Below, one piece after another: positions 20,460 to 47,310 of a stretch of 64,000 bases of DNA. Below the pieces are notes generated by a model that did no database searches, had not been told where the DNA came from, and saw only the letters and a list, made by a program, of their open reading frames with translations. Made by a program: the position numbers and the translations under genes. The stretch comes from Halomonas sp. (GTDB taxonomy: Bacteria; Pseudomonadota; Gammaproteobacteria; Pseudomonadales; Halomonadaceae). Within the stretch, counting starts at the first letter, position 1, and every line of letters begins with the position of its first letter. The stretch is taken from NCBI RefSeq assembly GCF_014859505.1, contig NZ_JACUUD010000002.1, positions 4,166-68,165 of the forward strand, read 5' to 3'.

Positions 20460-20504
20460 CGGACTCTCCTTGTTGGCCATGACATCACACGATGCCGAGC
20501 CCTC

Positions 20505-20537
20505 ACCCTAGCGCCCCTTCCTGAAATCCAACTGAAA
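20505..20537 (-). promoter_or_regulatory. OmpR/PhoB-type tandem repeat with -10 element for the 493-aa gene
   Basis: Minus strand TTTCAG-N5-TTTCAG (20521-20537, 11-bp period), then exactly 10 nt, then TAGGGT (-10-like, 20505-20510). Confidence 0.55.
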
Positions 20538-20542
20538 GGCGT

Positions 20543-21874: not shown

Positions 21875-21880
21875 GGGGCC

Positions 21881-22558
21881 TCAGGCCTCGTCGGCGAAGC
21901 GGTAGCCCAGGCCGCGCAGGGTCACGATGGGCTGGCGGGCAGCGACGCGTTCCAGCTTGCGGCGCAGCAGGCGCAGGGTGGCGTCCAGGGCGTTATCGGT
22001 AACCGCCTGGTCATGTCCCCACAGGCGTTCGTAGATCAGCTCCCGGGGCACGCTGTGGCCGGCGCGACGCATCAACAGCTCGAGCAGCTGGAACTCCCGC
22101 TGGGTCAGCAAGACCGTGCGGCCACCATGGGCGACGCGCCGCTCGTCACACTCCAGGGTCCAGGCCCCGACCTGCAGGCGGCGGTCGCTCAGAGGACGAC
22201 TGGCACGACGCCCCAGCGCCTCGAGCCGAGCCAGCAGCTCCTCGGGCTCGAAGGGCTTGAGCAGGTAGTCGTCGGCCCCGGCGGCAAAGCCCTCGAGCCG
22301 ATCCTCCAGGGCGTCCCGGCCGGTCAGCATCAGGATGCCGCCCTCGAAGCCATCGGCGCGGGCCCGCTCGCACAGCGAGACACCCTCCTCGTGGGGCAGC
22401 ATCCAGTCCAGCACCAGCAGGTCGTAGTCACCCTGGGCCATCAGCGCCGCCGCCATCCGCCCATCGTGGGCCACGTCCACGGTGTGCCCCGCCTGGCGAA
22501 GCAGGTGGTCCAGCAGCCGCGTCAGGCGCTCGTCGTCATCCACCAGCAGCAGATACAC
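21881..22558 (-). CDS. OmpR-family response regulator
   Basis: GTG start after GGAG; LLVDDD, LDWMLP, ADDYLLKPF, LTQREFQLLELL, TLRGLGYR. Confidence 0.93.
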   Translation of the reverse strand: MYLLLVDDDERLTRLLDHLLRQAGHTVDVAHDGRMAAALMAQGDYDLLVLDWMLPHEEGVSLCERARADGFEGGILMLTGRDALEDRLEGFAAGADDYLLKPFEPEELLARLEALGRRASRPLSDRRLQVGAWTLECDERRVAHGGRTVLLTQREFQLLELLMRRAGHSVPRELIYERLWGHDQAVTDNALDATLRLLRRKLERVAARQPIVTLRGLGYRFADEA

Positions 22559-22642
22559 CCTCAACTCCCTGTCGCATCCAGCACGATATCGCCTTTCGAG
22601 GCTCATGCAAAACGTGAAGAAATACAATAGTCTAGCCCAAGG

Positions 22643-22659
22643 ATTAAGGAAGTATTAAG
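22643..22659 (+). promoter_or_regulatory. OmpR-type tandem repeat upstream of ttrB
   Basis: ATTAAG-GAAGT-ATTAAG (11-bp period), 17 bp upstream of the FNR box. Confidence 0.55.
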
Positions 22660-22676
22660 AGCCGGCTAACATTCTC

Positions 22677-22690
22677 TTGATGCATATCAA
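22677..22690 (+). promoter_or_regulatory. Perfect FNR/ANR box for ttrBCA
   Basis: TTGAT-GCAT-ATCAA. TAGGCT at 22713-22718 places the box at about -41.5 (class II). Confidence 0.8.
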
Positions 22691-22787: not shown

Positions 22788-23567
22788 ATGGACCACCTTC
22801 GCCGCTCCCTTCTCGGCCAGCTGGCCCGCCTCAGCGCGGGTGCCGCCCTGATACCGCTCTCGAGCGTTGCCAGCGCCGGCATCAACAGCCAGCCGCCGCG
22901 CCGAGAAGGCGACCCCACCAAGCGCTACGGCATGCTCATCGACCTGCGCCAGTGCATCGGCTGCCAGGCCTGTACCGTGTCGTGCCATATCGAGAACGAC
23001 GCCCCCATGGGCAAGTTCCGCACCACCGTCTCCCAGTACGAGGTGGAGCATCAGGAGACTGGCGAGCTGGCCACCTTCATGCTGCCGCGCCTGTGCAACC
23101 ACTGCGAGAACCCGCCCTGCGTGCCGGTCTGCCCGGTGGAGGCCACCTTCCAGCGCCAGGACGGCATCGTGGTAGTGGACAGCGACCGCTGCGTGGGCTG
23201 CGCCTACTGCGTCAACGCCTGTCCCTACGACGCCCGCTTCATCAACGACAGGACCCAGACCGCCGACAAGTGCACCTTCTGCGCCCACCGCCTGGAAGCC
23301 GGCCTGCTGCCGGCCTGCGTGGAGAGCTGCGTGGGCGGCGCGCGGATCATCGGCGACATGCGCGACCCCGAGAGCCAGATCAGCCGCATGATCAATGATC
23401 ACCGCGACGAGCTGATGGTGCTGCAGCCCGAAAAGAACACCCTGCCCCAGGTCTTCTACCTCGGCATGGACGAGCGCTTCATCACGCGCCCGCTCGCCGA
23501 GCCGGTAACCCTGGAAGTCCTCGACCCCCACGGCAAGGAGATGGGTTATGAATTCCATGGCCATTGA
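22788..23567 (+). CDS. ttrB: Tetrathionate/selenate reductase-type 4x[4Fe-4S] subunit B
   Basis: Tat-like LRRSLLG; CIGCQACTVSC, CNHCENPPCVPVC, CVGCAYCVNACP, KCTFC...PACVESC. Confidence 0.88.
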   Translation: MDHLRRSLLGQLARLSAGAALIPLSSVASAGINSQPPRREGDPTKRYGMLIDLRQCIGCQACTVSCHIENDAPMGKFRTTVSQYEVEHQETGELATFMLPRLCNHCENPPCVPVCPVEATFQRQDGIVVVDSDRCVGCAYCVNACPYDARFINDRTQTADKCTFCAHRLEAGLLPACVESCVGGARIIGDMRDPESQISRMINDHRDELMVLQPEKNTLPQVFYLGMDERFITRPLAEPVTLEVLDPHGKEMGYEFHGH

Positions 23568-24744
23568 GCTGCTCGCTCCCCGCTACGCCATCGCCTGGTA
23601 CCCCTGGGCGGTGCAGTACTTCTTCCTGATCGCCATCTCCTACGCCACCCTGTGGCTGGCAGCCCCGGCGCTGGTGTTCGGCCAGCAGCGCTGGCTGCCC
23701 ACCGCACGCCTGGCCATGCTGGCCTGCCTGACCACCACCCTGGTGGCGCCGGTGGCGCTGCTCGCCGACCTGCACCAGCCGCTGCGCTTCTGGCACTTCT
23801 ACGCCTACTCCACCTCCAGCTCCTGGATGTCCATCGGCAGCCTGCTGCTGCCGCTCTACGTGGTGGGCGTGCTGCTGCTCGCCTGGCTGGCCTGGCGCCC
23901 CGCCCTGCAGGCCAATCGCCAGGCGCCCGGCCTGCCGGGCCTGGTGGCGCGCCTGCTGTCGTTCGGTACCGCCCCTACCCCGCGCGCGGCGCTGGTACTG
24001 GTGGGCCTGGGCACACTCGCGCTCTCCACCGGCATCATGCTCTACACCGGCGCCGAGCTCGCCGTGGTCAAGGCGCGTCCGCTGTGGAACACCGTCTGGC
24101 TGCCGCCGATGCTGGTCACCACCGGCTTTATCGCCGCCGCCGGCCTGATCCTGGTGCTCAACCGGGTCAGCGGCCTGCGAGACCAGGCCAGCAGCGGCCA
24201 GATGCTCAGGGTGCTGCTGGGCGCCTGCGTGGTGGCCGGCATCATAGCCGGCAGCTGGTTCCTGGACGGCATCAACGCCAACGTCGGCTCGGTGGCCGCG
24301 GCGCTCGATTCCGTGCGGGCGAGCCCCTCCTGGCGCAGCACCGCCCTCTGGGGCGGCCTGACCGGGGTGGCCCTGTTCGGCGCCGTGCTCACCCTGCTCA
24401 CCCGCCCCGCCGCCCGCCACCCGGCCCTCTTCGCCTGGGCCTGGGTGCTGGGCCTGGTGGCCATCCACATGGGCTGGATGTTCCGCTGGGTGGTGCTGAT
24501 GGACGTGCAGCACGTGGCCCGCAACAGCGCCGGCTTCCACCACTACGGCATCCCCGCCGGCTCCTCCGGCCTCCTCGGCATCGTCGGCACCTTCGGCCTG
24601 TGGCTCGCCGCGGCCCTGGTGATCGACCTGCTGATCCCCTGGCGCCAGGCGCGTCAGGGCGGCAGCGCCGCCGACGTCTCCTCTTCCGAAAGCAACGCAC
24701 AGCCCGACGCCAAGTCCGTCGAAGGAGCGCCCAGCCATGGCTAA
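23557..24744 (+). CDS. ttrC: NrfD/PsrC-family membrane anchor subunit C
   Basis: IAWYPWAVQYFFL, ALLADLHQPLRFWHF, SWMSIG, YTGAEL, WMFRW; polytopic. Confidence 0.85.
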   Translation: MAIELLAPRYAIAWYPWAVQYFFLIAISYATLWLAAPALVFGQQRWLPTARLAMLACLTTTLVAPVALLADLHQPLRFWHFYAYSTSSSWMSIGSLLLPLYVVGVLLLAWLAWRPALQANRQAPGLPGLVARLLSFGTAPTPRAALVLVGLGTLALSTGIMLYTGAELAVVKARPLWNTVWLPPMLVTTGFIAAAGLILVLNRVSGLRDQASSGQMLRVLLGACVVAGIIAGSWFLDGINANVGSVAAALDSVRASPSWRSTALWGGLTGVALFGAVLTLLTRPAARHPALFAWAWVLGLVAIHMGWMFRWVVLMDVQHVARNSAGFHHYGIPAGSSGLLGIVGTFGLWLAAALVIDLLIPWRQARQGGSAADVSSSESNAQPDAKSVEGAPSHG

Positions 24745-27700
24745 GTCACCCGTCGACACCTCACGCCGCCGCTTCATGAAGGGTGCCGTCGCCGCCGGCG
24801 GTGCCGCCACCTTCGTCGCCGGCTACTCCGACCCCCTGGCCAAGATGGCCAAGGGCGTCACCGGCAGCGCCGGCGAGAAGCCGAAGGACCGCATCCACGG
24901 CAACTCCCTGGCCCCGGAGTACCGGGTCGACCTCGACACCGGCGAGCTGACCCTCAACCCGGACCAGCGCACCGCCTTCACCATCTGCTACGGCTGCACC
25001 ACCCAGTGCGGCGTGCGGGTGCGCGTCGACAACGAGAGCGACCGGGTGCTGCGCGTCTCCGGCAACCCCTACCACCCGCTCTCCGCCGACGACCACCTGC
25101 CCATGCGCACCCCGGTGGCCGAGGCGCTGCGCCACGTCAGCGCCTACGGCGGCCAGGGCCAGGTCAACCGCTCCACCGCCTGCGCCCGCGGCAACGCCAT
25201 GATGAGCCAGTTGGAGAGCCCCTTCCGCATCGACCACTGCCTCAAGCGGGTGGGCGAGCGCGGCGCTCGCCAGTGGCAGAAGATCTCCTTCGAGCAGCTG
25301 ATCGAGGAGATCTGCGAGGGCGGCGACCTGTTCGGCGAGGGCCAGGTGGACGGCCTGCGCGCCATCCATGACCACGACACCCCGATCGACCCGGAGAACC
25401 CGGAGTTTGGCCCGAAGGCCAACCAGCTGATGGTGATGGAGGCCACCGACTACGGCCGCTCCGAGCTGCTCAAGCGCTTCACCCTCAACGGCTTCGCCAC
25501 CCGCAACTACGGCCACCACGGCTCCTACTGCGGCCTGGCCTTCCGCATGGGCTCCGGTGCCGTGATGAACGACCTGGGCGCCAACGCCCACGTCAAGCCG
25601 GATATCCAGAACGCCCGCTTCATCATGTATATCGGCACCGCGCCGAGCCAGGCCGGCAACCCGTTCAAGCGCCAGGGCCGGCTGATCGCCAAGGCCCGTG
25701 CCGAGGGCACCCTGGAGTACGTGGTGGTGGACCCGGCGCTGAACGCCTCCGCCTCCCACGCCGCCGACCACAACCGCTGGGTGCCGATCCGCCCCGGCAC
25801 CGACAGCGCCTTCGCCATGGCCATCATCCAGTGGCTGCTCGAGAACGAGGGCTACGCCAGGGAGTTCCTGGAGCTGCCGGGCAAGGCCGCCGCGGACGCC
25901 GCCGGCGAGGCGACCCACTCCAACGCCACCCATCTGGTGATCGACACCGCCGACCACCCGCGCCGCGGCCACTTCCTGCGCGCCAGCGACCTGGGCCTGG
26001 CGGAGCCCGACAGCGACGCCGACGGCCCCATGGTGGTGGTCGATGGCGAGCTCGTTCACGGCGAGGAGGCGATGGCGGCCGAGCTCTTCATCGACCGCGA
26101 GGTCGAGCTTGCCGACGGGAGCGCCGTGCGGGTGAAGAGCAGCATGACCCTGCTGCGGGAGTCGGCCAACGAGTTTGAGCTGGCCACCTACGCCGAGCAC
26201 TGCGGCATCCCCGAGGCCACCATCGTCGAGCTGGCCCGCCGCTACGCCAGCCACGGCCGCCGCGCCGTGGTCAACTGCCACGGCGGCATGATGTCGGGCA
26301 ACGGCTTCTACGCCGCCTTCGGCGTGCAGATGCTCAACCTGCTGGCCGGCAACTACAACATGAAGGGCGGCAGCGCCGTGGGCGGGGGCCAGTTCAACGG
26401 CTTCAGCCAGGGCCCCCGCTACGACCTGGTGAACTTCCCCGGCAAGCGCGGCCCCCAGGGCGTCTTCCTCTCCCGCTCGCGCTTCCCCTACGAGCGCTCC
26501 TCGGAGTACCGCCGCAAGGTAGAAGCCGGCGAGAATCCCTACCCGGCCAAGGCGCCGTGGCGCTCCTTCGCCCCGCCCACCCTCACCGAGCACCTGCCCT
26601 CGGCGCTGGACGGCTACCCCTACCCGATCAAGGCGCTGATCGGCTGCATGGCCAACCCCATCTACGGCCAGGCCGGGCTCGAGGCGATGATCGCCGACAA
26701 GCTCAAGGACCCGAAGCGCCTGGGGCTCTTCGTGGCGGTGGACGGCTTCATCAACGAGACCAACCGCTACGCCGACTACATCGTGCCCGACTCGGTGATG
26801 TACGAGGTGTGGGGCTTCACCGGCGCCTGGAAGGGCGCGCTGGGCAAGCTGACCACCGCCTGCTGGCCGGTGGTGGAGCCGCGCCAGCAGAAGACCGCCG
26901 AGGGCGAGCCGGTCTCCATGGACAGCTTCTTCATCGCCGTGGCCAGACGCCTGGGCCTTTCCGGCTTCGGCGACGAGGCGATCCCGGATGCCGACGGCAA
27001 CCTGCACCCGCTCAACCGCGCCGAGGACTACTACCTGCGCGCCGCGGCCAACATCGCCTTCATGGACGAGCCGCTGCCCGAGGCCGACGAGAGCGACGTC
27101 GCCCACGGCGGCATCGCCCCGCTGCTGCCGCGCCTCGAGCGCACCCTCAAGGCCGATGAGCGCGGCCGGGTGGCCTACCTCTACGCCCGCGGCGGACGCT
27201 TCCAGGACGCCAGCGACCACTTCCGGGGTGAACGGCTGACCAACGCCTGGCGGCGCACGCTGTGCGTCTACAACGAGGTGGTGGGCACCAGCATCGACAC
27301 CATGACCGGCAAGACCAACCGCGGCGTACCCGGGCACAGCCTGCCGCTGCTGGCCAACAAGCAGACCATGCGCGAGGTGTTCCCGGAGGAGGAGTGGCCG
27401 CTGCTGGCCTTCTCGTTCAAGTCCAACCTGATGAACTCCTACGCCATCGGCAACGAGCGGCTGCGCATGATCAAGCCCTACAACCCGGTGCAGATGCATC
27501 GCCAGGACGCCGAGCGCTACGGCATTGCCCACGGCGACACCATCCGCATCGACAGCCCCGGCGGCAGCGTGGTGGGCCTGGCGCTGGTCAGCGAGAGCGT
27601 GATGCCGGGCTCGCTCGGCATCGAGCACGGCTACGGCCACCGGGATCTCGGCGCCACGCCCCACGTGATCGACGGGGAGTCCCAGCCGGACATGCCCTGG

Positions 27701-27832
27701 CTGCGCGCCGGCATCAACATCAACGACCTGGGCTTCCGGGACCCGACCCGCAACGTGGACGGCACCTGGCTCGAGCCCATCAGCGGCGCCAGCGTGCGCC
27801 AGGGCCTGCCGGTGAGGGTCCGCCGCGCCTGA
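24737..27832 (+). CDS. ttrA: Molybdopterin catalytic subunit A of the TtrA/SrdA clade
   Basis: Tat SRRRFMK; CYGCTTQC...GNPYHP...CARG 4Fe-4S motif; HGSYCG; 1031 aa; B-C-A gene order. Confidence 0.85.
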   Translation: MAKSPVDTSRRRFMKGAVAAGGAATFVAGYSDPLAKMAKGVTGSAGEKPKDRIHGNSLAPEYRVDLDTGELTLNPDQRTAFTICYGCTTQCGVRVRVDNESDRVLRVSGNPYHPLSADDHLPMRTPVAEALRHVSAYGGQGQVNRSTACARGNAMMSQLESPFRIDHCLKRVGERGARQWQKISFEQLIEEICEGGDLFGEGQVDGLRAIHDHDTPIDPENPEFGPKANQLMVMEATDYGRSELLKRFTLNGFATRNYGHHGSYCGLAFRMGSGAVMNDLGANAHVKPDIQNARFIMYIGTAPSQAGNPFKRQGRLIAKARAEGTLEYVVVDPALNASASHAADHNRWVPIRPGTDSAFAMAIIQWLLENEGYAREFLELPGKAAADAAGEATHSNATHLVIDTADHPRRGHFLRASDLGLAEPDSDADGPMVVVDGELVHGEEAMAAELFIDREVELADGSAVRVKSSMTLLRESANEFELATYAEHCGIPEATIVELARRYASHGRRAVVNCHGGMMSGNGFYAAFGVQMLNLLAGNYNMKGGSAVGGGQFNGFSQGPRYDLVNFPGKRGPQGVFLSRSRFPYERSSEYRRKVEAGENPYPAKAPWRSFAPPTLTEHLPSALDGYPYPIKALIGCMANPIYGQAGLEAMIADKLKDPKRLGLFVAVDGFINETNRYADYIVPDSVMYEVWGFTGAWKGALGKLTTACWPVVEPRQQKTAEGEPVSMDSFFIAVARRLGLSGFGDEAIPDADGNLHPLNRAEDYYLRAAANIAFMDEPLPEADESDVAHGGIAPLLPRLERTLKADERGRVAYLYARGGRFQDASDHFRGERLTNAWRRTLCVYNEVVGTSIDTMTGKTNRGVPGHSLPLLANKQTMREVFPEEEWPLLAFSFKSNLMNSYAIGNERLRMIKPYNPVQMHRQDAERYGIAHGDTIRIDSPGGSVVGLALVSESVMPGSLGIEHGYGHRDLGATPHVIDGESQPDMPWLRAGININDLGFRDPTRNVDGTWLEPISGASVRQGLPVRVRRA

Positions 27833-27845
27833 GGCAATCCTGTGC

Positions 27846-27871
27846 CTGTCGAGCGATCAGTCGCTCGACAG
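27846..27871. terminator. Hairpin between convergent ttrA and egtD
   Basis: CTGTCGAGCGA-TCAG-TCGCTCGACAG. Confidence 0.55.
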
Positions 27872-28834
27872 TCAGTCGCTCGAAAGGTAGTGCACGCTGA
27901 ACAACGCCTCGGCGTCGCTCCAGACCGCGCTCGGCCGATAACCGGCTCGCCTGGCCAACGCCTGGAACCCCTTGCGACTGTACTTGCAGGAATTTTCCGT
28001 GTGCAGCGTCTCGCCCCGGGCGAAATCGAAGCGGCACTCACCGAGGACGAGGGTCTGCCGGCACCTGCTGACCAGATGCATCTCGATGCGCGATGACGCC
28101 GCATCGAAGTAGGCGAGATGCCGGAAGTTGCCGGGCTCCACCGCAACGCCCAGTTCGCGGCGCATGCGCTCCAGCAGATTGAGATTGAACGCCGCCGTGA
28201 CACCGGCGGCATCGTTGTAAGCCGCCTCGAGGGCACTCGTGTCCTTGACCAGATCGACCCCGATCAGCACGCCGCTGCCGGGGGGAAGGGCCCGGCGCAG
28301 CCGCGCGAGAAAGGCCTCGGCCTCGACCGGCGTGAAGTTGCCGATGCTCGAGCCGGGAAAGAAGGCTACCACCCGCCGACCCTCGACCCCTGTCGGCAAC
28401 CGCAACCGGGCCGAGAAGTCCGCCCAGGCCGCGTGAACCTCGAGCCAGGGATAGTCGGCCGCCAGGCGACGGGTGCTCTGCAGCAGGAAGTCGCGGGAGA
28501 TATCCACCCCCAGGTAACGACTCGGGCGCAGCGTCTCCAGCAGCAGGCGCACCTTGCGGCTGGCCCCGCTGCCCAGTTCGACCAGCAGCGACTCCGGTCC
28601 GACCAGCGATGCGATCTCCTCGGCGGCCGCGGCGAGGATGCCCTCCTCGGTCCGGGTCAGGTAGTACTCGGGCTGGCGGCAGATCGATTCGAACAGCAGG
28701 GAGCCCCGTTCATCATAGAAGTACTTGGGCGACAGGGCCTTGGGAGAGCGGCCCAGCCCGGCGATCACGTCGTCGCCAAACGACGGCCCCGCTTCGTCGA
28801 CATGCTGGTCATGGAAATGGACGGCTGTGGACAT
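27872..28834 (-). CDS. egtD: L-histidine N-alpha-trimethyltransferase (hercynine synthase)
   Basis: PKYFYD, PEYYLTRTE, VELGSG, FFPGSSIGNF, GVDL, YND..GVTAAFN, RIEMHL, HTENS. Confidence 0.9.
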   Translation of the reverse strand: MSTAVHFHDQHVDEAGPSFGDDVIAGLGRSPKALSPKYFYDERGSLLFESICRQPEYYLTRTEEGILAAAAEEIASLVGPESLLVELGSGASRKVRLLLETLRPSRYLGVDISRDFLLQSTRRLAADYPWLEVHAAWADFSARLRLPTGVEGRRVVAFFPGSSIGNFTPVEAEAFLARLRRALPPGSGVLIGVDLVKDTSALEAAYNDAAGVTAAFNLNLLERMRRELGVAVEPGNFRHLAYFDAASSRIEMHLVSRCRQTLVLGECRFDFARGETLHTENSCKYSRKGFQALARRAGYRPSAVWSDAEALFSVHYLSSD

Positions 28835-28971
28835 CAAGGACCCTCGCTGGCGAAAGGGGCTGGCGGCAGAGGTCGACAACACGCCGACACCGAGATGGCG
28901 TCGCGTTGTCGATTAACCTTTAGACTGTGACGCCAACGCCAATGTCTCACCAATCTAGAGCGAGCCTGACC

Positions 28972-31320
28972 ATGCAGCAACCGCAGCAGCCCCAGGGGTT
29001 ACAAGTGTTACGGGATATCGTGCTGGTCGGCGGCGGCCACACCCACGTCGGCGTCCTCAAGCGTTTTGCCATGCGCCCGGAGCCCGGCGTCAGGCTCACC
29101 ATGATCTGCCGCGACACCCATACCCCCTACTCGGGCATGCTGCCGGGCTATGTGGCCGGGCACTACACCTACGATGACGTGCATATCGACCTGCGCCGCC
29201 TGGCGGAGTACGCCGGGGCACGCTTCTTCCGCGACGAGGCCATCGGCATCGACCACGATGCGCAGACCATCCACTGCCGCTCGCGCCCGCCGGTGCCCTA
29301 TGACTGGCTGTCGATCAATATCGGCTCGACACCCAGCATGAATTCGGTCAGCGGTGCCGGCGAGCATGCGGTGCCGGTCAAGCCTATCCATCAGTTCAAC
29401 GACCGCTGGCAGAGGCTGCTCGAGCGTCTCACGCACCCACACGCCGGGCAGCACCCGGGCCAGACCCGCATCGCGGTCGTCGGCGGCGGCGCCGGCGGCG
29501 TCGAGCTGCTGCTGGCCATGCAGCACCGGCTGGGCAACGAACTCGGCGCCCAGGCCCGCGACCCGAATGAGCTGCGCTTCTCCCTGTTCACCCGTGGCGC
29601 GCAGATCCTGCCGACTCACAACGCACGGGTACGCGCCCACTTCCAGGCCACCCTCAGGCAGCGCGGCGTCGAGGTGCACACTGCCACCGACGTGGTCGAT
29701 GTCGAGGCGGGCCGTCTGCAGACCGCCGACGGCAACTGGCATGCCGCCGACGAGATCATCTGGGTCACCAATGCCGGCGGGGCCGCCTGGCTGCGCGATA
29801 CCCGCCTGGCACTCGACGACGACGGCTTCATCCGGGTCGGCGACACCCTTCAGTCGCTCTCCGATCCGCGCATCTTCGCCGCTGGCGATATTGCCAGCCA
29901 GGTCGACCATCCCCGCGAGAAGGCCGGGGTCTTCGCCGTGCGCCAGGGACGTCCGCTGGCAGACAACCTGCGTGCCGCGGTGACCGGCAAGCCCCTGAAA
30001 CCCTACCGCCCCCAGGCGCGGTGGCTGGCCCTGATCAGCACCGGCGACCGCCATGCCGTGGCGTCACGCGGGGGGCTCTTTCTCGCGGGAGACTGGGTGT
30101 GGCGCTGGAAGGACGGCATCGACCGGCGTTTCATGGCCCGATTCACAACCCGGCTCAACGACCTGCCGCCGATGGAGCACGGCGCCATGCAGGCGCCCCG
30201 GCCCAGCAAGGTAGTCCTCGACGAGGAGGAGAACGCCCAGGCAATCTCGGCCATCGCCATGCGCTGCGGCGGCTGTGGCGCCAAGGTCGGCGCCTCGGTG
30301 CTCTCTCGTGCCCTCTCGACCCTGCAGCCGGTGGACCGGGACGAGGTGCTGGTGGGCCTGCACGCCCCGGACGATGCCGCCGTGGTGCGGGTGCCGCCGG
30401 GCAAGGCCATGGTGCATACCGTCGACTTCTTCCGCGCCTTCATCGACGACCCCTATGTGTTCGGCAAGGTCGCCGCCAACCACGCCCTGGGCGACATCTT
30501 CGCCATGGGGGCCGAGGCGCAGACCGCCACCGCGATCGCCACGGTCCCCCAGGGGCTCGAGGCCAAGGTCGAGGACACCGTCTTCCAGATGATGACCGGC
30601 GCCCTCGAGGTGCTCAATGCCGCCGACTGCGCCCTGGTCGGCGGCCACACCGGCGAGGGGGCCGAGCTGGCCCTGGGCTTCGCCGTCAACGGCCTGATCG
30701 ACGCCGAGGGCGACGGTATCCGGAACGACGGTATCCTGACGAAAGGCGGCCTGCGCGCGGGGCAGGTGCTGATCCTGACCAAGCCCATCGGCACCGGCAC
30801 CCTGTTCGCCGCCCATGCCCGGCTGGGTGCCCGGGGTCGCTGGATCGACGCCGCCCTCGACAGCATGTGCCAGTCCAGCCGCGAGGCCGCGGCCTGCCTG
30901 CGCGAGTACGGCGCCACCGCCTGTACCGACCTCACCGGCTTCGGCCTGCTGGGCCATCTGGTGGAGATGACGCGCCCCTCGGAAGTGGATGCCGAACTCG
31001 ACCTGGCCGCGCTGCCGCTGCTCGAGGGCGCCGAGGAGACCGTCGCCGCCGGGATCCTGAGCTCGCTGCAGCCCGCCAACGTGCGCCTGCGCCGGGCCAT
31101 CCGCGACCAGGCGGCCTGGGTCGAGCACCCCCGCTATCCGCTGCTGTTCGATCCCCAGACCGCCGGCGGCCTGCTGGCCAGCGTGCCCGCCGAGCGCGCC
31201 GACGCCTGCCTCGCGGCCCTGCACGCCCTGGGGTACGCCAGGGCCGCCGTCATCGGCCGCGTCCTCGAGCCCAGCGACTCGCTGGAACCCATCCATCTGA
31301 CGGATGGCGCTAAGACGTGA
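28972..31320 (+). CDS. selD: Pyridine nucleotide-disulfide oxidoreductase domain fused to selenophosphate synthetase (SelD/SenC)
   Basis: N-terminal VLVGGGHTH, YSGMLPG, VVGGGAGGVE, IFAAGD; C-terminal CGGCGAKVG, DDAAV, VDFF, GGHT, DLTGFGLLGHL, FDPQTAGGLL. Confidence 0.92.
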   Translation: MQQPQQPQGLQVLRDIVLVGGGHTHVGVLKRFAMRPEPGVRLTMICRDTHTPYSGMLPGYVAGHYTYDDVHIDLRRLAEYAGARFFRDEAIGIDHDAQTIHCRSRPPVPYDWLSINIGSTPSMNSVSGAGEHAVPVKPIHQFNDRWQRLLERLTHPHAGQHPGQTRIAVVGGGAGGVELLLAMQHRLGNELGAQARDPNELRFSLFTRGAQILPTHNARVRAHFQATLRQRGVEVHTATDVVDVEAGRLQTADGNWHAADEIIWVTNAGGAAWLRDTRLALDDDGFIRVGDTLQSLSDPRIFAAGDIASQVDHPREKAGVFAVRQGRPLADNLRAAVTGKPLKPYRPQARWLALISTGDRHAVASRGGLFLAGDWVWRWKDGIDRRFMARFTTRLNDLPPMEHGAMQAPRPSKVVLDEEENAQAISAIAMRCGGCGAKVGASVLSRALSTLQPVDRDEVLVGLHAPDDAAVVRVPPGKAMVHTVDFFRAFIDDPYVFGKVAANHALGDIFAMGAEAQTATAIATVPQGLEAKVEDTVFQMMTGALEVLNAADCALVGGHTGEGAELALGFAVNGLIDAEGDGIRNDGILTKGGLRAGQVLILTKPIGTGTLFAAHARLGARGRWIDAALDSMCQSSREAAACLREYGATACTDLTGFGLLGHLVEMTRPSEVDAELDLAALPLLEGAEETVAAGILSSLQPANVRLRRAIRDQAAWVEHPRYPLLFDPQTAGGLLASVPAERADACLAALHALGYARAAVIGRVLEPSDSLEPIHLTDGAKT

Positions 31321-32305
31321 GGCCGCAGGCGGCAATGACCCGCGCCAGCCCCGCCCGTTCGGCCTCGGGACGGAACCTCGGCGCCCGCGCCAGCACCTGC
31401 CGGCGGAGACGATCGACGAACGCCGGCTCGGCCTCGGCCTGCAGCAGCCGTTCCCGCAGGGCCGCGGTATCGGCCACCGGGAAGTAGCCGGCGTAGTCCT
31501 CGCCCAGCAGGCCGCGGTTACCGGGGATCGCCGAGGCCAGCACCGGCAGGCCGGCCACGCAGGCCTCGCTGACCACATTGGCGCCTCCTTCCATGCGCGA
31601 GCTGATCACCATCAGCCGTGCCCGGGCCATCCACTGGCGCACCCGCCAGCGAGGCAGGTCGTCGAGCCAGCGGTAACGCCCGTTGCACGCCATCTCCTCG
31701 CGGGCGGCCTCGGCCCACTCCGGGCTATGGGCGCCGCCGAGCTGCACCACGCACAATCGCGACGTCGATGGCAGCTCGCGCACGGCCAGGGCCGCGCGCA
31801 GCGAGTCCTTCTCCTCGCGCAGGTGGCCGGCGACCAGCACCTCGAAGCGGCGACGGATGGGCCCCGGGGCACGGAGCGGCAGGGGGAGGGCCGACTGGTG
31901 GACGACATGCAGACGCGACAGGAAGCGCGCCGGGAGGTCCTCGGCCAGGCAATCATGCAGGCCGATCAGGGCATCGCTCGCGGCGAGGCTGTCGAGGAAC
32001 GGCTCGGGATGGCTGTACTGGAAGCGGTAGACGTCGGTCCCGGTCAGCACCACCACCAGCGGGCACGCCGGAAAGGCAGCGCGACAGGCACGAATGGCCG
32101 CATGGCTGCGCACCGCATGGAGCGCCAGCACCAGGTCCGGTGGCTGGCCGGCAAGGCGGCAGGCATCGGGGCCGTCCTCGGACCCCACCAGGCGGACACG
32201 GCAGCCCAGCTCTCGCAGCAGCCCCGCCCAGCGGGTCGCCGTGGCCCGATTGCCGGCATGCGACCCTCGACCCGCCGGCGTGATCAGGGCTATGTTCAAT
32301 GCCAT
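31310..32305 (-). CDS. senB: Selenosugar synthase glycosyltransferase
   Basis: ITPA...GNRATATRWA, LHAVRS, VLTGTDVY, GHLREEKD, SSRMEGGANV.SEA; neighbours selD and an EgtB-like gene. ATG 32305 after GGAGG. Confidence 0.88.
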   Translation of the reverse strand: MALNIALITPAGRGSHAGNRATATRWAGLLRELGCRVRLVGSEDGPDACRLAGQPPDLVLALHAVRSHAAIRACRAAFPACPLVVVLTGTDVYRFQYSHPEPFLDSLAASDALIGLHDCLAEDLPARFLSRLHVVHQSALPLPLRAPGPIRRRFEVLVAGHLREEKDSLRAALAVRELPSTSRLCVVQLGGAHSPEWAEAAREEMACNGRYRWLDDLPRWRVRQWMARARLMVISSRMEGGANVVSEACVAGLPVLASAIPGNRGLLGEDYAGYFPVADTAALRERLLQAEAEPAFVDRLRRQVLARAPRFRPEAERAGLARVIAACGLTS

Positions 32306-32337
32306 GGTACCTCCAGCACTTCCCTTGCGAGGACGGC

Positions 32338-33699
32338 ATGCTCCCCACACCTTTCACCACACCGCCTACCCCGCCCCGTGCCGCCGACGAATTGGCGTCG
32401 ATGCTCACCGATGCCCGCGAGCGCAGCCTGGCGCTGATGCGGGACACCCTCGCGTCCCGCGAACTCGGCCCGCGGCTGGCGATCGTCAATCCCCCGCTGT
32501 GGGAACTCGGCCACCTGGGCTACTTCCACGACCATTTCGCCCTGCGCGGCCTGTATGGCCTGCCCGACTACCGGCTCGCCGGCGCCGATCGACTGTTCGA
32601 TTCCAGCAGCATCGCCCATGACGACCGTTGGTCGCTACCGCTGCCGTCGCGCGAGGCCACCCTGGACTACCTGGCACGGGTGCAGGAGGCCATGCTCGAG
32701 CGCCTTCCCGACGGCGAGGCCAGTGCTGCCCAGAGCTATGTCTACCAGCTCACCACGCTGCACGAGGACATGCACGGCGAGGCCTTCCTCTACACCCGCC
32801 AGACCCTGGGCGACCCGCCGCCCGCGCTGGGCATGCCAACGCGGGGGGGCTGCCTGACAGAGTCCGCCACCGAGCTCCTCGCCGGGGCCCTGCCCGGGGA
32901 TGTCGACATCCCCGGCGGGTGCCATCAACTGGGCTCCGACGAGACCGTTCCCTTCCGCTTCGACAATGAGAAGCCCCCCATGGAGGTCGAGGTGGCGCCC
33001 TTCTCGATCGCCCGGGCGCCGGTGACCAACACCGAATTCGCCGACTTCGTCGACGACGGCGGCTATGCACGATGCGAGCTGTGGAGCGAGGCCGGCTGGC
33101 GCTGGCGCGGGCAACAGGGCCTGCAGGCACCGGTCTACTGGCGCAAGGGCGACGACGGCTGCTGGGAGGAGCGCCGCTTCGACCGCTGGTTGCCGCTGCC
33201 CCCCCACCAGCCGGTGGTGCATGTCAGCTGGTTCGAGGCCGACGCCTGGTGCCGCTGGGCCGGGCGCCGCCTGCCCAGCGAAGCCGAGTGGGAGGTCGCC
33301 GCCAGCCGGGAGCCAAGCTCAGACGGCCGCTCCCTGGCACCGGGCAAGCGCCTCTTCCCCTGGGGCGACACGCCACCGGTTGCCCGGCTGGCCAACCTGG
33401 ACGGCTGGCGCCTGGCACCGCTGGACGTGGCATCACTGCCCGAGGGCGACAGCGCCTTCGGCTGCCGCCAGATGCTGGGCAACGTCTGGGAATGGACGGC
33501 CTCACCCTTCGGCCCCTTCCCGGGCTTCGCGCCCGAGCTCTACCGCGACTACTCGGCGCCCTGGTTCAAGGAGGGCCGCTACGTACTGCGTGGCGGTGCC
33601 TGGGCCACGCGGTCACGGCTGATCCACAACGGCTACCGTAACTTCTTTACCCCGGAGCGCCGGGATATCCTCGCCGGTTTCCGTACCTGCGCCCCCTGA
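32338..33699 (+). CDS. senA: Selenoneine synthase (EgtB-like DinB + FGE-sulfatase domains)
   Basis: NPPLWELGH, Fe-binding HEDMH, YWR, PVVHVSWFEA, RLPSEAEWE, GNVWEW, LRGG, YRNFF; context. Confidence 0.87.
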   Translation: MLPTPFTTPPTPPRAADELASMLTDARERSLALMRDTLASRELGPRLAIVNPPLWELGHLGYFHDHFALRGLYGLPDYRLAGADRLFDSSSIAHDDRWSLPLPSREATLDYLARVQEAMLERLPDGEASAAQSYVYQLTTLHEDMHGEAFLYTRQTLGDPPPALGMPTRGGCLTESATELLAGALPGDVDIPGGCHQLGSDETVPFRFDNEKPPMEVEVAPFSIARAPVTNTEFADFVDDGGYARCELWSEAGWRWRGQQGLQAPVYWRKGDDGCWEERRFDRWLPLPPHQPVVHVSWFEADAWCRWAGRRLPSEAEWEVAASREPSSDGRSLAPGKRLFPWGDTPPVARLANLDGWRLAPLDVASLPEGDSAFGCRQMLGNVWEWTASPFGPFPGFAPELYRDYSAPWFKEGRYVLRGGAWATRSRLIHNGYRNFFTPERRDILAGFRTCAP

Positions 33700-33777
33700 C
33701 ACGAAACCGTTCGCCCGATTGGGTATCATTACCTGTTCTCGCCGCCCCAGGTTTCTCACACCGAAAGGACTCCCGAC

Positions 33778-34650
33778 ATGTTCCGATGCCCGCCGCTGGC
33801 CCTGGTCCTGCTCCTCGGCACTCTCGTCACCCCTGCCGTGGCGGCCGCCGCCCCCCTGGTCTTCACCGCCATTCCCGACGAGGACGAAACGCGCCTGCAG
33901 CAGCGCTTCCAGTCCGTGGCCGACTACCTCGCCGAGACACTCGACGTCGAGGTGCGCTTCATTCCGGTTACCTCCTATGCCGCCTCGGTCACCGCCTTTC
34001 GCAACAACCAGGTGCAGCTGGCCTGGTTCGGCGGCTTCACCGGCGTGCAGGCACGCCAGCTGGTGCCGGGCTCCCGCGCCATCGCCCAGGGAGTGGAAGA
34101 CCCCGACTACAAGAGCTACTTCATCGCCAACCAGGCCACCGGCCTCGCGCCCCACGACGGTGACAGCGCCCCCGAGGGGCTGCGCGGCCTGACCTTCAGC
34201 TTCGGCTCCCGGAGCTCGACCTCGGGCAGGCTGCTGCCGGAATACTTCCTGCGCGAGCACCTCGGCGCCTCGCCCGACGAGCTGTTCGCCCGGGTCGGCT
34301 TCAGCGGCAACCACAGCCGAACCATCTCGGTGGTGCAGTCCGGCGCCTACCAGGCCGGCGTGGTCAGCTACAAGGCGTGGGAGAACGAACTCGAGGCAGG
34401 CAACATCGACCTCGACCAGGTCCAGGTGATCTGGGAGACGCCGCCCTACCCCGACTATCAATGGACGGTGCGTGGCGATGTCGACGAGCGCTTCGGAAAG
34501 GGCTTCACCGAGCGCCTTCAGCAGGCGCTGCTCGACATGGACGACCCCGACCTGCTGGCCAGCTTCCCCCGCTCGGGCTTCATCCCGGCCGATAACGACG
34601 ATTACCGGGAAATCCTCGAGGTTGCGCAGTCCCTGGGGCTGCTCGACTGA
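33778..34650 (+). CDS. PhnD-like binding protein of the 'putative selenate ABC transporter' type
   Basis: FTAIPDEDET, QLAWFGGFTGVQA, FGSRSSTSGRLLPEY, FSGNHS, TPPYPDYQW. Confidence 0.8.
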   Translation: MFRCPPLALVLLLGTLVTPAVAAAAPLVFTAIPDEDETRLQQRFQSVADYLAETLDVEVRFIPVTSYAASVTAFRNNQVQLAWFGGFTGVQARQLVPGSRAIAQGVEDPDYKSYFIANQATGLAPHDGDSAPEGLRGLTFSFGSRSSTSGRLLPEYFLREHLGASPDELFARVGFSGNHSRTISVVQSGAYQAGVVSYKAWENELEAGNIDLDQVQVIWETPPYPDYQWTVRGDVDERFGKGFTERLQQALLDMDDPDLLASFPRSGFIPADNDDYREILEVAQSLGLLD

Positions 34651-35303
34651 TGACCGTGCTGGCGCTGAAGGATGCCGTCGCCACCTATGGCGAGGTGCGC
34701 GTGCTCGGGCCCCTGAGCCTGACGCTGGCACCCGGCGAACGTGTGGCGCTGGTCGGTCGCAGCGGCGCCGGGAAGTCGACGCTGCTGTCGGTGATGTACG
34801 ACCGCTGGCGCGACCAGGGAGCCGCCCTGATGCCCCAGGACCTGGGGCTCGTGTCGACACTCTCGGTGTTCCACAACGTCTACATGGGCCGGCTCGACCG
34901 CCACCCCTGGTGGCGCAACCTGCTGACCCTGGTGCGCCCGCGGCGACGTGACGTGGCGGAGATCGACGCCCTGCTCGGCCGGCTCGGCCTGGACGACAAG
35001 CGCTGGACACCCTGCGGCGAACTCTCCGGCGGGCAGCGGCAGCGCGTTGCCGCGGCGCGGGTTATCCACCAGGGCGGCGGCATGCTGCTCGCCGATGAGC
35101 CGGTCTCGGCACTCGATGGTCCCCTCTCCGAGGTGGTCCTGACCGCGCTGACCGACGCCTACCCCACCGCGGTACTGGCCATGCACGATGTGGAACTGGC
35201 GCTGCGCTACTGCACCCGGGTGATCGGCATCCAGGATGGCGCCATCGCCATCGACCAGCCCAGCCAGAGGCTGGCCGCCACTGACCTGCTGCCGCTCTAC
35301 TGA
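34650..35303 (+). CDS. ABC ATP-binding protein (PhnC-like)
   Basis: GRSGAGKS, LSGGQRQR, LLADEP, AMHD. Confidence 0.88.
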   Translation: MTVLALKDAVATYGEVRVLGPLSLTLAPGERVALVGRSGAGKSTLLSVMYDRWRDQGAALMPQDLGLVSTLSVFHNVYMGRLDRHPWWRNLLTLVRPRRRDVAEIDALLGRLGLDDKRWTPCGELSGGQRQRVAAARVIHQGGGMLLADEPVSALDGPLSEVVLTALTDAYPTAVLAMHDVELALRYCTRVIGIQDGAIAIDQPSQRLAATDLLPLY

Positions 35304-36790
35304 TGCCGTTGACCGCCACCCGTCGCGTCACCCTGGGGCTGATCCTTGCGGCCGCGGTGTGCCTGCTGTTCGGCGATTTCGAGATCAGTACCCATGACCC
35401 CTGGCAGGCACTGGGCCGCCTGTTCATGGGGCTGGTCCAGCCCGACTTCTCCCGCGTCGACTTCCTCGGCGAGGCCCTGCTGCGAACCGTGGCCTTTGCC
35501 TTCGTCGGCGTGGGGCTCGGCTCGGCGGCGGGCATGCTGCTGGCCCTGCTCTTCCGGCATGCCTGGGTGCGTACCTTCTGCGCCTTCATCCGCGCCATCC
35601 ATGAGCTGTTCTGGGCGCTGATCTTCCTGCAGAGCTTCGGCCTGCACCCGATCACCGGGGTGCTGGCCATCGCCATTCCCTACGCCGGCACCTTCGCCAA
35701 GGTCTATGCCGAGATCCTCGACGAGTGCGACCCGCAGCCGGAACGCAGCCTGCCACAGCGCGCCGGGCGGCTATCGGCGCTGGTCTATACCCGCATCAGC
35801 CAGGCCTGGCCACACCTGGTCAGCTATACCGCCTATCGACTCGAATGCGGCCTGCGCTCGAGCGCGGTGATCGGCTTCGTCGGCATGCCGACCCTGGGGT
35901 TTCATCTGGCAGGCGCCTTCGCCCAGGGCCACTACAGCACGGTTGGCGCACTGCTGCTGCTCTTCTACGCCCTGATCGCCTCCCTGCGGCTCTGGGCGCG
36001 GCCACGGCTGCTGCCCCTCTACCTGGCGGCCTCCCCCTTCCTGCTGGGTACCGGGCTACCGATCATGTGGAGCAATGTCTCGCGCTTCTTCACCGAGGAC
36101 ATCGTGCCGGCCCCGCTGCGCAACGGCGAGGGCCTGGCGGGCCTCTGGCCCTGGTTCGGCGACCTCCTGCTCGGCCAGGCCCTGCCCGGCATCTGGAACA
36201 CCCTGCTGCTGACCCAGATCGCCCTGGTGCTGACGGGCATCCTGGCGATGACGCTGTTTCCCCTGATCTCCCATCATTTCACGGGGCGCCACCTCACCGG
36301 CCGAGTGCGCGGCGCCATGGGACATGGGGTGCTGGTGGTGATGCGCTCCACCCCCGAGTACCTGCTGGCCTTCATCCTGCTGCAGCTGTGGGGGCCCTCG
36401 ATGCTGCCGGCGGTGGTCGCCCTGGCGCTGCACAACGGCGGCATCATCGGCCACCTGGTCGGACGCCGCAGCAACGAGATCCACCTGCGCCAGGACGCCC
36501 CGGGCGGCATCAACCGCTACGCCTACGAGGTGGCACCGCGGGTCTACGGTCCCTTCCTGGCGCTGCTCTTCTACCGCTGGGAGATCATCATGCGCGAGAC
36601 GGCGATATTGGGGATTCTCGGGATCGCCACCCTGGGCTTCTACGTCGACAGCGCCATCCAGGAGCTGCGCTTCGACCGCGCCATGGTGCTCATCCTGATC
36701 ACCGCGCTGCTCAATATCGCGGTGGACATCCTGGCTCGCCGGCTGCGCGCCCACCTGCGCCTGAGCCACACCGCCCGGAGCGAGCCCTGA
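35303..36790 (+). CDS. ABC permease with two tandem PhnE-like domains
   Basis: IRAIHELFWA...LECGLRSSAVIGFVG, then MRSTPEY...WEIIMRETAILGILG; 495 aa. Confidence 0.85.
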   Translation: MPLTATRRVTLGLILAAAVCLLFGDFEISTHDPWQALGRLFMGLVQPDFSRVDFLGEALLRTVAFAFVGVGLGSAAGMLLALLFRHAWVRTFCAFIRAIHELFWALIFLQSFGLHPITGVLAIAIPYAGTFAKVYAEILDECDPQPERSLPQRAGRLSALVYTRISQAWPHLVSYTAYRLECGLRSSAVIGFVGMPTLGFHLAGAFAQGHYSTVGALLLLFYALIASLRLWARPRLLPLYLAASPFLLGTGLPIMWSNVSRFFTEDIVPAPLRNGEGLAGLWPWFGDLLLGQALPGIWNTLLLTQIALVLTGILAMTLFPLISHHFTGRHLTGRVRGAMGHGVLVVMRSTPEYLLAFILLQLWGPSMLPAVVALALHNGGIIGHLVGRRSNEIHLRQDAPGGINRYAYEVAPRVYGPFLALLFYRWEIIMRETAILGILGIATLGFYVDSAIQELRFDRAMVLILITALLNIAVDILARRLRAHLRLSHTARSEP

Positions 36791-36809
36791 TCGCCCCCGG
36801 GACAGGCAC

Positions 36810-36837
36810 GCGCCCCCGCCGATACCGGCGGGGGCGC
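36810..36837. terminator. Hairpin between the ABC operon and frdB
   Basis: GCGCCCCCGCCG-ATAC-CGGCGGGGGCGC. Confidence 0.65.
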
Positions 36838-36895
36838 TGTTGCCTCCCAATCAGCCGCGAGCAGGCTCAGTCGAAGGCCTCCCGGGCCATATCGC

Positions 36896-37675
36896 TTATC
36901 CCGTGGCGATCATTCGCCGCCGCAGGAAGGCGATCTGGGTCTGCAGGGTGAGGTCCTTGGGACAGACATCCTGGCAGCCGAGCAGGGTCATGCAGCCAAA
37001 CACCCCGTCGTCGTCGCCGATGAGTTCGTAATAGTCCGCATCGGTGCGATCGTCACGGGGGTCCAGGCGGAAGCGGGCGATCTTGTTGAGCCCCACGGCG
37101 CCGACGAAATCCTCGCGCATCAGGGCGGTCCCGCAGGCGGCCACGCAGCAGCCGCACTCGATGCAGCGGTCGAGCTCGTAGATTTCCTCGGCAAGCGATG
37201 GCTCCATCCGTTCCTCGAGGCGATCCGGATCGATCTCTTGCTGGCCATGGACCCAGGTCTCCAGGCGTTCGCTCATGCCTCGCATCCACTGGCCGGTATC
37301 CACCGACAGATCGCCGATCAGCTTGAACGCCGGCAGCGGGGCCAGGGTGATCTCCTCGCCGAGGGTCTGGGTCAGGGTCCGGCAGGCCAGACCGGGGCGC
37401 CCGTCGATCAGCATGCCGCAGCTGCCGCAGATGCCCGCCCGGCAGACGAAATCGAACTGCAGGGAGGGCGCGTACTCATCGCGAATGGCATTCAGGGCGA
37501 TGAAGAGCGTCATTCCCGGCGTCTCATCCAGTTCGAAGGTCGCCATGTGGGGATGGCTATCCGGGTCCCGGGGATTGTGGCGCAGGATCTTGAACGTCAA
37601 TCGACGCCCTGATGCCACCCGGGATGAATGAGAGGTCGAAAGAGAGGTGGAATCCACTGGGGAATCAGTGCTCAT
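36896..37675 (-). CDS. frdB: Fumarate reductase/succinate dehydrogenase Fe-S subunit
   Basis: [12 protein letters not shown]...[27 protein letters not shown]. Confidence 0.92.
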
Positions 37676-39653: not shown

Positions 39654-40426
39654 GACAATTCTCCGAGGGGGGGGACAGGCAGCATCGGGTGCTCCGCCGG
39701 CACTGATGACGCCCATGACAAGACCGGCTGCCCAAAGTGATCCTGCTGGGTCAGGCCGATCTTGATGAAGGCGGCCAGGGAGGCCAGCCCGAGCGCCAGG
39801 AAAAAGACCGTGACCCCCCACTTGGCACGCTTGAGCTTCCTGCGACTCTCGACGGGGTTGCTGCCGGTCAGAAAGCCCCACTTGACCGCCAGGCGGTAGA
39901 GGCCGATGGAACCGTGCAATTCCACGGCCAGCAGCAGCAGGAGGTACAGCGGCCACATCCATTCGGAGACCACCCGATTGGCCGAGCCATAGGCGCCGAT
40001 GGTGTCGGGGCGAGTCATCATGATGTAGAGATGAACCGACCCGAGAAAGAACATGGCGAATCCGGTGAAGACCTGGACGAACCAGAGCGTCGTATCCTCA
40101 TGCCCCATGCGCTTCATGTGATCATGGAAGGTGCGGTACTGGCGGTAGCTGGAGGGAAACTTGCGCAGCGCCAGAAGCGCATGCAGCACGAACAGCGCAA
40201 AGACTCCCATGGCCGCCATGGAGACAATGACGGGATAGGTCTGCTCGAAGATCAGCGAGCCCTCCATCCAGCCCGCTACCCGATCGAAGGCATCGGCGCC
40301 GAGCAGGATCGAAGCGACGAAGAACATGTGGAACCACATGAACAGCGCCAGCACAAGCCCGCTGAGGCTCTGCAACAGATCGAGCCGGGCAGGCATCCTG
40401 CTTTTCGCCTTCGTGATCGATTTCAT
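39650..40426 (-). CDS. frdC: Diheme cytochrome b anchor, Wolinella-type FrdC
   Basis: [12 protein letters not shown], four His (FMWFH, VLHAL, SVHL, VELHGS), [10 protein letters not shown]. Confidence 0.88.
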
Positions 40427-40482
40427 CTACCAGGCCTCACGGTGTTATTGATGACCGGACTTTTCCTCCGGAACGCCAACTC

Positions 40483-40524
40483 AAAATAACCCTTAAAGCT
40501 GGGTATCGGCTTGATATTGGTCAA
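40483..40524 (-). promoter_or_regulatory. FNR/ANR box with class II -10 for frdCAB
   Basis: TTGAT-ATTG-GTCAA at 40511-40524. Minus-strand TATTTT at 40483-40488 falls at -12..-7 if the box is at -41.5. Confidence 0.7.
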
Positions 40525-40621
40525 GTGTAGCCCAGGAAATACATGCGGTAGCGATGTCAAGGTGAATGCTGTCTCCATCCTCGACCGGACATGCAGCACC
40601 GATGTGGCGCGAGACCCGGGT

Positions 40622-43794: not shown

Positions 43795-43797
43795 GGC

Positions 43798-45395: not shown

Positions 45396-47310
<1,915 letters not shown>

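Follow-up and report, generated by a model that had tools for sequence, protein, structure and literature searches.

Does the close packing of genes in a bacterial chromosome imply that their products act together? The question is raised by a stretch of 64,000 nucleotides from Halomonas sp. (NCBI RefSeq assembly GCF_014859505.1, contig NZ_JACUUD010000002.1, positions 4,166 to 68,165 of the forward strand), the whole of which is called the window below. In it, the genes of a tetrathionate reductase-type molybdoenzyme (ttrBCA) are followed, within positions 22788-36790, by the selenoneine genes egtD, senC, senB, and senA and by a putative selenium-oxyanion importer of the ATP-binding cassette (ABC) type. 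An initial annotation, made from the DNA letters alone, suggested that the reductase acts on a selenium oxyanion and thereby feeds selenoneine synthesis; chance adjacency of two separately acquired modules was named as the main alternative. If true, the former would be the first link of a respiratory molybdoenzyme to a selenium natural-product pathway. The evidence presented here points the other way: with a probability of roughly 0.8, ttrBCA and the sen genes with their ABC importer are two functionally separate systems that are neighbours via one shared, hypervariable slot of the Halomonas chromosome. The adjacency of separately acquired modules is thus the better reading, as both modules use the same slot and assort independently.

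Two gene sets and the slot that holds them

Family profile searches confirmed all of the genes named in the initial annotation and revealed no unrelated gene between them. Neighbouring genes are spaced by 39-105 bp or overlap, and the block falls into five or more transcription units that alternate in strand. The window has a G+C content of about 68 % and long shadow open reading frames are plentiful; curated family models were used to tell the real genes from these. Plus-strand frames at 28118-28930 (over egtD) and 31304-32437 (over senB) gave no family match and were rejected as shadow frames. The reductase genes all lie on the plus strand. ttrB (22788-23567) specifies a four-cluster ferredoxin subunit (Fer4_11; NF011569, 404 bits with a cut-off of 416), ttrC (23548-24744) a membrane-located, quinol-oxidising anchor of the NrfD/PsrC type (PF03916; NF011568, 187 bits, cut-off 314), and ttrA (24737-27832) the molybdopterin catalytic subunit (NF011567, 1326 bits, cut-off 1750), the match to which covers positions 3-1021 of 1022. 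For all three proteins the Ttr models gave the best and full-length matches, yet each score lies below the NCBI equivalog cut-off.

The selenium genes pass their curated models, and the egtD-selD-senB-senA set is complete, as had been claimed. The hercynine-making histidine N-alpha-methyltransferase gene egtD (27872-28882, minus strand) scores 392 with TIGR03438 (cut-off 291). senC (28927-31320, plus strand) encodes a TIGR03169 flavoprotein domain (514 bits, cut-off 310) fused to a Cys-type SelD domain (TIGR00476, 289 bits, cut-off 125) with the catalytic Cys/Lys motif CGGCGAK. It is followed by the selenosugar synthase gene senB (31310-32350, minus strand; TIGR04348, 370 bits, cut-off 300) and the selenoneine synthase gene senA (32299-33699, plus strand; NF041186, 513 bits, cut-off 420), the true start of which is probably a later Met codon. 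SenA is distinct from EgtB, the model of which (TIGR03440) gives 320 bits with a cut-off of 360, and reaches 132 of the 400 bits demanded by the OvoA N-terminal model. Identity as OvsA, the ovoselenol enzyme, was rejected because the SenA model is passed and egtD is a direct neighbour. The importer of the PhnDCE type (33778-36790, plus strand) consists of a binding protein (33778-34650) belonging to the TIGR04553 "putative selenate ABC transporter" family (392 bits, cut-off 250), a PhnC-like ATPase (34650-35303), and a double PhnE-like permease (35303-36790).

Nucleotide alignment of related Halomonas loci to the window showed that this block occupies part of a slot, bordered on the left by a gene for an HTH_37 (XRE-type) regulator (18495-18881, plus strand; Pfam PF13744) and on the right by a gene for an IlvD/Edd-family dehydratase (47459-49144, minus strand; PF00920/PF24877). 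The segment 18515-18884 is the last piece of backbone ahead of ttrB, or of egtD, in all related Halomonas loci, while 47461-49190 comes directly after ttrA, senC, or abcP in relatives. Between these borders, optional cassettes are found in a constant order: a 500-amino-acid protein with a kinase and a regulator; ttrBCA; egtD, senC, senB, and senA; the ABC importer; frdCAB; and an alternate ATPase. Since ttr and sen both reside in one slot, their adjacency is automatic whenever both are present and carries no information on function.

Every cassette is missing from some relatives. The nearest relatives (loci L052, L053, L054, and L057), in which position 27836 is joined to 47471, carry ttrBCA as the sole one of the downstream cassettes; compared with them, the window has about 19.6 kb extra (27837-47470). 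In L055 the block of sen genes and ABC importer ends at 36790 and joins 47461, and in L059 only senC is present between ttrA and the right border. In two genomes, G005 and G033 (both 99 % complete), the regulator gene is followed by egtD-senCBA, the ABC importer, and the dehydratase gene, without ttr. The combinations observed in relatives comprise ttrBCA alone; ttrBCA with senC, with the ABC importer, or with both; ttrBCA with egtD-senCBA, with or without the ABC importer; egtD with senC; and egtD-senCBA with the ABC importer but without ttr. The order is the same in all of these. Halomonas sp. HK25 and H. korlensis are examples of strains with the full block.

The remaining cassettes behave likewise. 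The two-component cassette (18978-22627, minus strand) comprises the 500-amino-acid protein, a sensor histidine kinase (20543-21874), and an OmpR-type response regulator (21881-22627), with RppB/RppA-like NCBIfam matches below the cut-offs. It stands next to ttr in the window, in H. mongoliensis, and in L065 and L101 only; it is missing in L052, L054-L057, and L059, in which 18884 is joined to 22643. The frdCAB genes for a quinol:fumarate reductase of the Wolinella type (36896-40426, minus strand; NF010071, NF006383, and NF010072, all above their cut-offs) are missing in L055, L047, and L048, which otherwise share the slot. The operon for an alternate F1F0 (N-type) ATPase (40622-47283, minus strand; a TIGR03323 gamma-like subunit and ATP-synt_ab subunits) is variably present among relatives.

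Independent distribution of ttr and sen

Co-occurrence was counted in all 117 genomes of the GTDB genus, without correction for kinship between genomes. TtrA was found in 50 of these, SenB in 36, the SenC flavoprotein domain in 50, and a TIGR04553 binding protein in 110. Sixteen genomes have both TtrA and SenB, which is the chance level (odds ratio 1.1, Fisher p = 0.84). In an initial set of 37 genomes from the genus, TtrA and SenB were always adjacent when on one contig. Among the 16 genomes with both proteins, the genes are 3-5 kb apart in 13, and two assemblies are too fragmented to tell. The linkage is not unique to the genome of the window, as adjacency of ttr and sen was seen in at least 13 species; all of them, however, belong to one genus and use one slot. 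The sen genes of ttr-less genomes are 82-90 % similar to those of the window, as are those of ttr-bearing genomes. In genome G114 the sen cluster is distributed over two contigs (the C6/C27 pair; loci L219 and L220), one carrying ttrA-egtD-senC and the other senB-senA and the ATPase genes. The former runs 7 kb past senC, and an insertion or rearrangement has split the cluster.

A survey of synteny, as the initial annotation had advised, gave no association of ttrBCA with sen beyond Halomonas. The 80 closest TtrA loci were inspected with 10-kb flanks; they include representatives of Vreelandella, Halovibrio, Marinospirillum, Modicisalibacter, Thiopseudomonas, Stutzerimonas, Marinobacter, Thioclava, Salipiger, and Algihabitans. 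Of the 80, 21 have selenium genes beside ttr, all of them in Halomonas sub-clades of the TtrA tree. Neither sen nor selD or TIGR04553 genes were found at the non-Halomonas loci in this set, nor at the 79 loci of a family-wide TtrA sample from many phyla. The survey was also done from the other side: at 80 diverse SelD-fusion loci outside Halomonas (L132-L211; Amphritea, sulfur-oxidising symbionts, Thioalkalivibrio, Alphaproteobacteria, Planctomycetota, Entotheonella, and others), the neighbours include senB in 56 cases, senA in 49, egtD in 22, and the ABC importer in 21, and no ttrA, ttrB, or ttrC is present within 10 kb at any of them. The linkage of ttr and sen is thus confined to one genus and one slot.

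The family-wide sample made a single addition to this picture. In Pistricoccus aurantiacus (L294:781-1923), a stand-alone TIGR03169 flavoprotein (459 bits), 56 % identical to the N-terminal domain of SenC, is encoded 2 kb upstream of ttrB, with an L-serine ammonia-lyase (serine dehydratase) gene in between. As an independent second origin of the linkage this locus is a weak candidate: a SelD domain is lacking and the intervening serine dehydratase gene is unrelated.

The catalytic subunit itself gives the same result. The TtrA proteins nearest to that of the window (94-96 % identical) are from Billgrantia desiderata, H. mongoliensis, and related Halomonas; in B. desiderata, H. mongoliensis, C05BenzN, and B. 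kenyensis, ttrA abuts the ilvD-like gene. On the TtrA tree, the selenium-adjacent state has changed at least eight times, loci with and without selenium neighbours are interleaved among Halomonas, and six members of the nine-member clade that holds the window TtrA have no selenium genes alongside. TtrA proteins from the two contexts are 92-96 % identical. The catalytic subunit, therefore, shows no sequence change that tracks the selenium context.

Control signals and the weighing of alternatives

Signals for separate expression were found by sequence reading and pattern search. The control region of ttr (22643-22690, plus strand) contains a direct repeat ATTAAG-N5-ATTAAG (22643-22659) and a perfect FNR-type box, TTGATgcatATCAA (22677-22690), located 98 nt ahead of the ttrB start. 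The repeat, of the response-regulator type, occurs once in the window, in front of ttrB; it sits in a part of the ttr block that is conserved even in relatives without the two-component cassette. The other near-FNR boxes in the window are at 40511 and 6798, and the pattern search of the window found no FNR-type box before any sen or ABC gene. The one at 40511-40524, TTGATattgGTCAA, is near-perfect and intergenic before frdC, consistent with anaerobic control of the frd cassette. A hairpin with a perfect 11-bp stem and a 4-nt loop (27846-27871; CTGTCGAGCGA-tcag-TCGCTCGACAG) is located in the 39-bp gap that separates the stop codons of the convergent genes ttrA and egtD. Different hairpins are present 3' of ttrA in the ttr-senC and ttr-ABC arrangements, so that each of the three arrangements examined has a hairpin behind ttrA. 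A scan of consensus promoters and terminators returned zero promoters and terminator-like sites at background level. The own FNR box, the terminator hairpin after ttrA, and the convergent egtD together argue that ttrBCA is an autonomous unit, which is probably induced without oxygen. SenA-type non-heme iron enzymes require O2. Published assays of selenoneine enzymes were done aerobically (Kayrouz et al. 2022, bioRxiv 10.1101/2022.04.13.486033). An O2-requiring SenA and an anaerobically induced ttrBCA would make a poor physiological match for a respiration-coupled pathway.

According to the scheme of the initial annotation, selenate or selenite would be reduced in the periplasm by a Ttr/Srd-type enzyme, the reduced product would enter through the ABC transporter, the flavoprotein fused to SelD would provide selenide, and SenB and SenA would complete selenoneine. 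The contiguity of ttr and sen in at least 13 Halomonas species speaks for this scheme, as does a mild co-occurrence of TtrA with SenC, and SrdBCA belongs to the same family with the same B-C-A order. Against it stand the independent distribution of ttr and senB, the occurrence of complete sen and ABC cassettes without ttr in the same slot, the nearest relatives that carry ttr without any selenium gene, the absence of the linkage from all 80 diverse SelD-fusion loci and from every non-Halomonas TtrA locus inspected, the likeness of TtrA in both contexts, the separate control of the ttr operon, and the oxygen requirement of SenA. With the ABC family annotated as importing selenate, periplasmic reduction would moreover be unnecessary. 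The scheme is improbable on these grounds, and the claim of a reductase that feeds selenoneine is not supported.

A looser coupling, in which selenoneine plays no part, would have TtrBCA cooperate with the SelD-fused flavoprotein, and optionally with the ABC importer, in anaerobic sulfur/selenium chemistry; for example, Ttr-derived thiosulfate or sulfide could drive abiotic reduction of selenite while the flavoprotein handles selenopersulfide. Such cooperation would account for the retention of ttr-senC and ttr-ABC pairs where senA and senB have been lost. Such pairs do exist: ttr is followed directly by the slot-type ABC importer in at least five genomes (G004, G063, G089, G109, and G129), and in G103 and G115 the open frame beside ttrA measures just 395-415 amino acids, corresponding to the flavoprotein half alone. 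The flavoprotein gene near ttrB in Pistricoccus may be counted here as well, although a serine dehydratase gene separates the two. The same pairs are, however, equally expected from differential deletion of one ancestral gene order; six genomes have a senB-less senC but no ttr; both senC and the ABC genes are parted from ttrA by a hairpin; and nothing comparable was seen outside the Halomonadaceae. We therefore consider this coupling unlikely. The same low probability is assigned to a version in which the reductase moonlights on selenium oxyanions or selenium-sulfur species, together with the flavoprotein-SelD protein and the slot ABC importer, in anaerobic acquisition or detoxification; in that version, the ttr-senC and ttr-ABC pairs would have been selected and would not be deletion leftovers. 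Transfer of the whole stretch from ttr to the ATPase genes as a single mobile island, which would account for the linkage, is very unlikely. The 19.6 kb that the window has in excess of its nearest relatives and the partial incongruence of the TtrA tree with taxonomy (Marinospirillum is nested among Halomonadaceae) would fit such an island. Yet no tRNA gene and no convincing flanking direct repeats are present in the window, no integrase or transposase was noticed among the annotated genes of the region (a targeted search was not made), the G+C content is flat at 65-73 % across the block, and the cassettes come in many partial combinations rather than all or none.

Several observations weigh against the view that the two systems are functionally separate. 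Selenium-related cassettes are always immediately downstream of ttr when ttr is present. TtrA and the SenC flavoprotein-SelD fusion occur together in 27 of the 117 genomes (odds ratio 2.2, p = 0.04, uncorrected for shared ancestry), which is at most suggestive as the genomes are not independent, and 11 of the 17 genomes with senC but without senB (loci L037:8743-11055, L038:8673-10997, and L221:7530-8741, among others) have it directly after ttrA. The scores of TtrA and TtrC fall short of the equivalog cut-offs, and the TtrA/SrdA/alternative-Arr family is catalytically versatile. A paralogue from Citrobacter plasmids, embedded among ars genes, shows that gene context can mark the substrate in this family; substrate-specific contexts of this kind would also favour a selenium-coupled reductase. 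Functional separation of ttrBCA and the sen-ABC set is nevertheless preferred, with the probability given above.

If the two systems are separate, the ABC importer would bring in a selenium oxyanion, the SelD domain of SenC would make selenophosphate, possibly helped by the fused flavoprotein in the supply of reduced selenium, SenB would make a selenosugar, and the O2-dependent SenA would join this to hercynine made by EgtD. The reductase would carry out an anaerobically controlled, quinol-dependent reduction of tetrathionate to thiosulfate in the periplasm. Gene identities, the cassette structure, the independent distribution, and the separate control signals are direct results of the analysis; the substrates, of the reductase as well as of the selenium genes, are predictions. 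Halomonas makes tetrathionate from thiosulfate. The locus cautions that contiguity within a hypervariable slot does not imply a common function. As Halomonas species with every combination of cassettes form a natural set, the coupling hypothesis is cheap to test.

Comparison with known reductases and selenoneine clusters

The tetrathionate reductase TtrBCA of Salmonella enterica was reportedly described by Hensel and co-workers in 1999. The window operon resembles the Salmonella/enteric one in the B-C-A order, the NrfD-type anchor, and the upstream FNR-type box. TtrA likewise has a twin-arginine signal (SRRRFMK) at its N-terminus, matches the Ttr model end to end, and contains the invariant four FS0 cysteines and the molybdenum-ligand Cys (C74, C77, C81, C128, and C253 in alignment A2, numbered after the first sequence). 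Unlike the enteric locus, in which ttrRS is adjacent, the window has no TtrS or TtrR; the OmpR-type regulator and simple histidine kinase found instead belong to an optional cassette, and most Halomonas relatives have no two-component genes beside ttr. TtrA is 50 % identical to the annotated enteric TtrA from a locus with ttrRS, and 31 % to both the Citrobacter plasmid paralogue within arsRDABC and a haloarchaeal paralogue; enteric TtrA is likewise only 30-34 % identical to these two. A tree of TtrA proteins without SrdA was built with FastTree and rooted on the ars-linked and archaeal paralogues. In this tree, enteric TtrA is the sister (support 89) of a fully supported marine proteobacterial clade holding the window TtrA, which thus groups with the enteric enzymes and not with the two paralogues. 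From its sequence, the window enzyme is most likely a quinol-dependent periplasmic reductase within the tetrathionate-reductase clade proper, converting tetrathionate to thiosulfate.

The respiratory selenate reductase SrdBCA of Bacillus (Mesobacillus) selenatarsenatis SF-1 was reportedly described by Kuroda and colleagues in 2011. SrdBCA and the window TtrBCA are of the common TtrA/SrdA/alternative-Arr lineage in the dimethyl sulfoxide reductase family, have the same gene order, and are alike in being membrane-bound, quinol-dependent enzymes that face the periplasm. The grouping of the window TtrA with enteric TtrA ahead of the two 31 % identical paralogues is a comparison that does not include SrdA. 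SrdA is absent among the best 120 TtrA homologues listed, all of which are TtrA-like, and no Mesobacillus is present in a family-wide scan of 80 loci. A PDB search with TtrA gave just the distant PsrA and ArrA structures, with local matches only. We know of no substrate-determining residues that distinguish TtrA from SrdA. A conserved link of the window-type reductase with selenium genes was not found: the association is seen in one genus and is independent of senB. On plasmids of Citrobacter and E. coli (e.g., NZ_CP024882.1; L213:4136-8940), a TtrBCA-like B-C-A operon is divergent from arsRDABC, with more arsC nearby; it probably represents the family branch termed "alternative arsenate reductase". 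The ars-embedded reductase has the three-subunit architecture of the window enzyme and is from the same family, but the A subunits are 31 % identical, and it is tightly coupled to arsRDABC, whereas the selenium genes of the window are separable cassettes.

Part of the importer story lies elsewhere in the genus. The TIGR04553 protein is present with or without sen or ttr, usually at another locus. Most genomes possess a single copy, which is the version of either a core locus or the slot, and the binding proteins of the two versions are 57-64 % identical (L215-L218). This suggests that the core and slot ABC importers are interchangeable xenologues of a housekeeping oxyanion importer. In the genome of the window, the core TIGR04553 operon is apparently decayed by internal deletions (contig C47:1-1779, compared with L215:6774-10066); what is left is about 460 bp of the gene for the binding protein, two short pieces, and the distal half of the permease gene. 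The slot importer appears to be the only intact TIGR04553 copy in this genome, although an assembly artefact is possible with 272 contigs. The genome also has a second, canonical selD beside selU on another contig, and no selA was found in it. This makes the fused SelD an additional, dedicated copy, which is what one would expect of SenC.

The selenoneine genes are of a published kind. Kayrouz et al. described 827 senA-senB-senC clusters, a small subset of which has a co-located egtD and many of which have a putative selenate transporter nearby (Kayrouz et al. 2022). The initial annotation knew of no description of a respiration-coupled selenoneine locus; the sen genes with the ABC importer are already known, which leaves the functional tie between ttr and sen as the only new element of that claim. 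In the window, senC and senB overlap tail to tail by 11 bp in their stop regions (31310-31320). Convergent senC and senB followed by a divergent senA is a layout conserved across many phyla in the 80 SelD-fusion loci, so that the canonical sen cluster of these lineages is not one co-directional operon. The flavoprotein-SelD fusion recurs in diverse phyla as well. Compared with the published cluster of Variovorax paradoxus and Amycolatopsis palatopharyngis, in which senC is selD, SenA, SenB, and SelD of the window pass the curated NCBI models and there is no essential difference: the host is a Halomonas, and the cluster shares a variable slot with respiratory cassettes. Together with its TIGR04553 ABC importer, egtD-senC-senB-senA forms a canonical selenoneine cluster of an already known type, and the window provides a clean Halomonas example of it.

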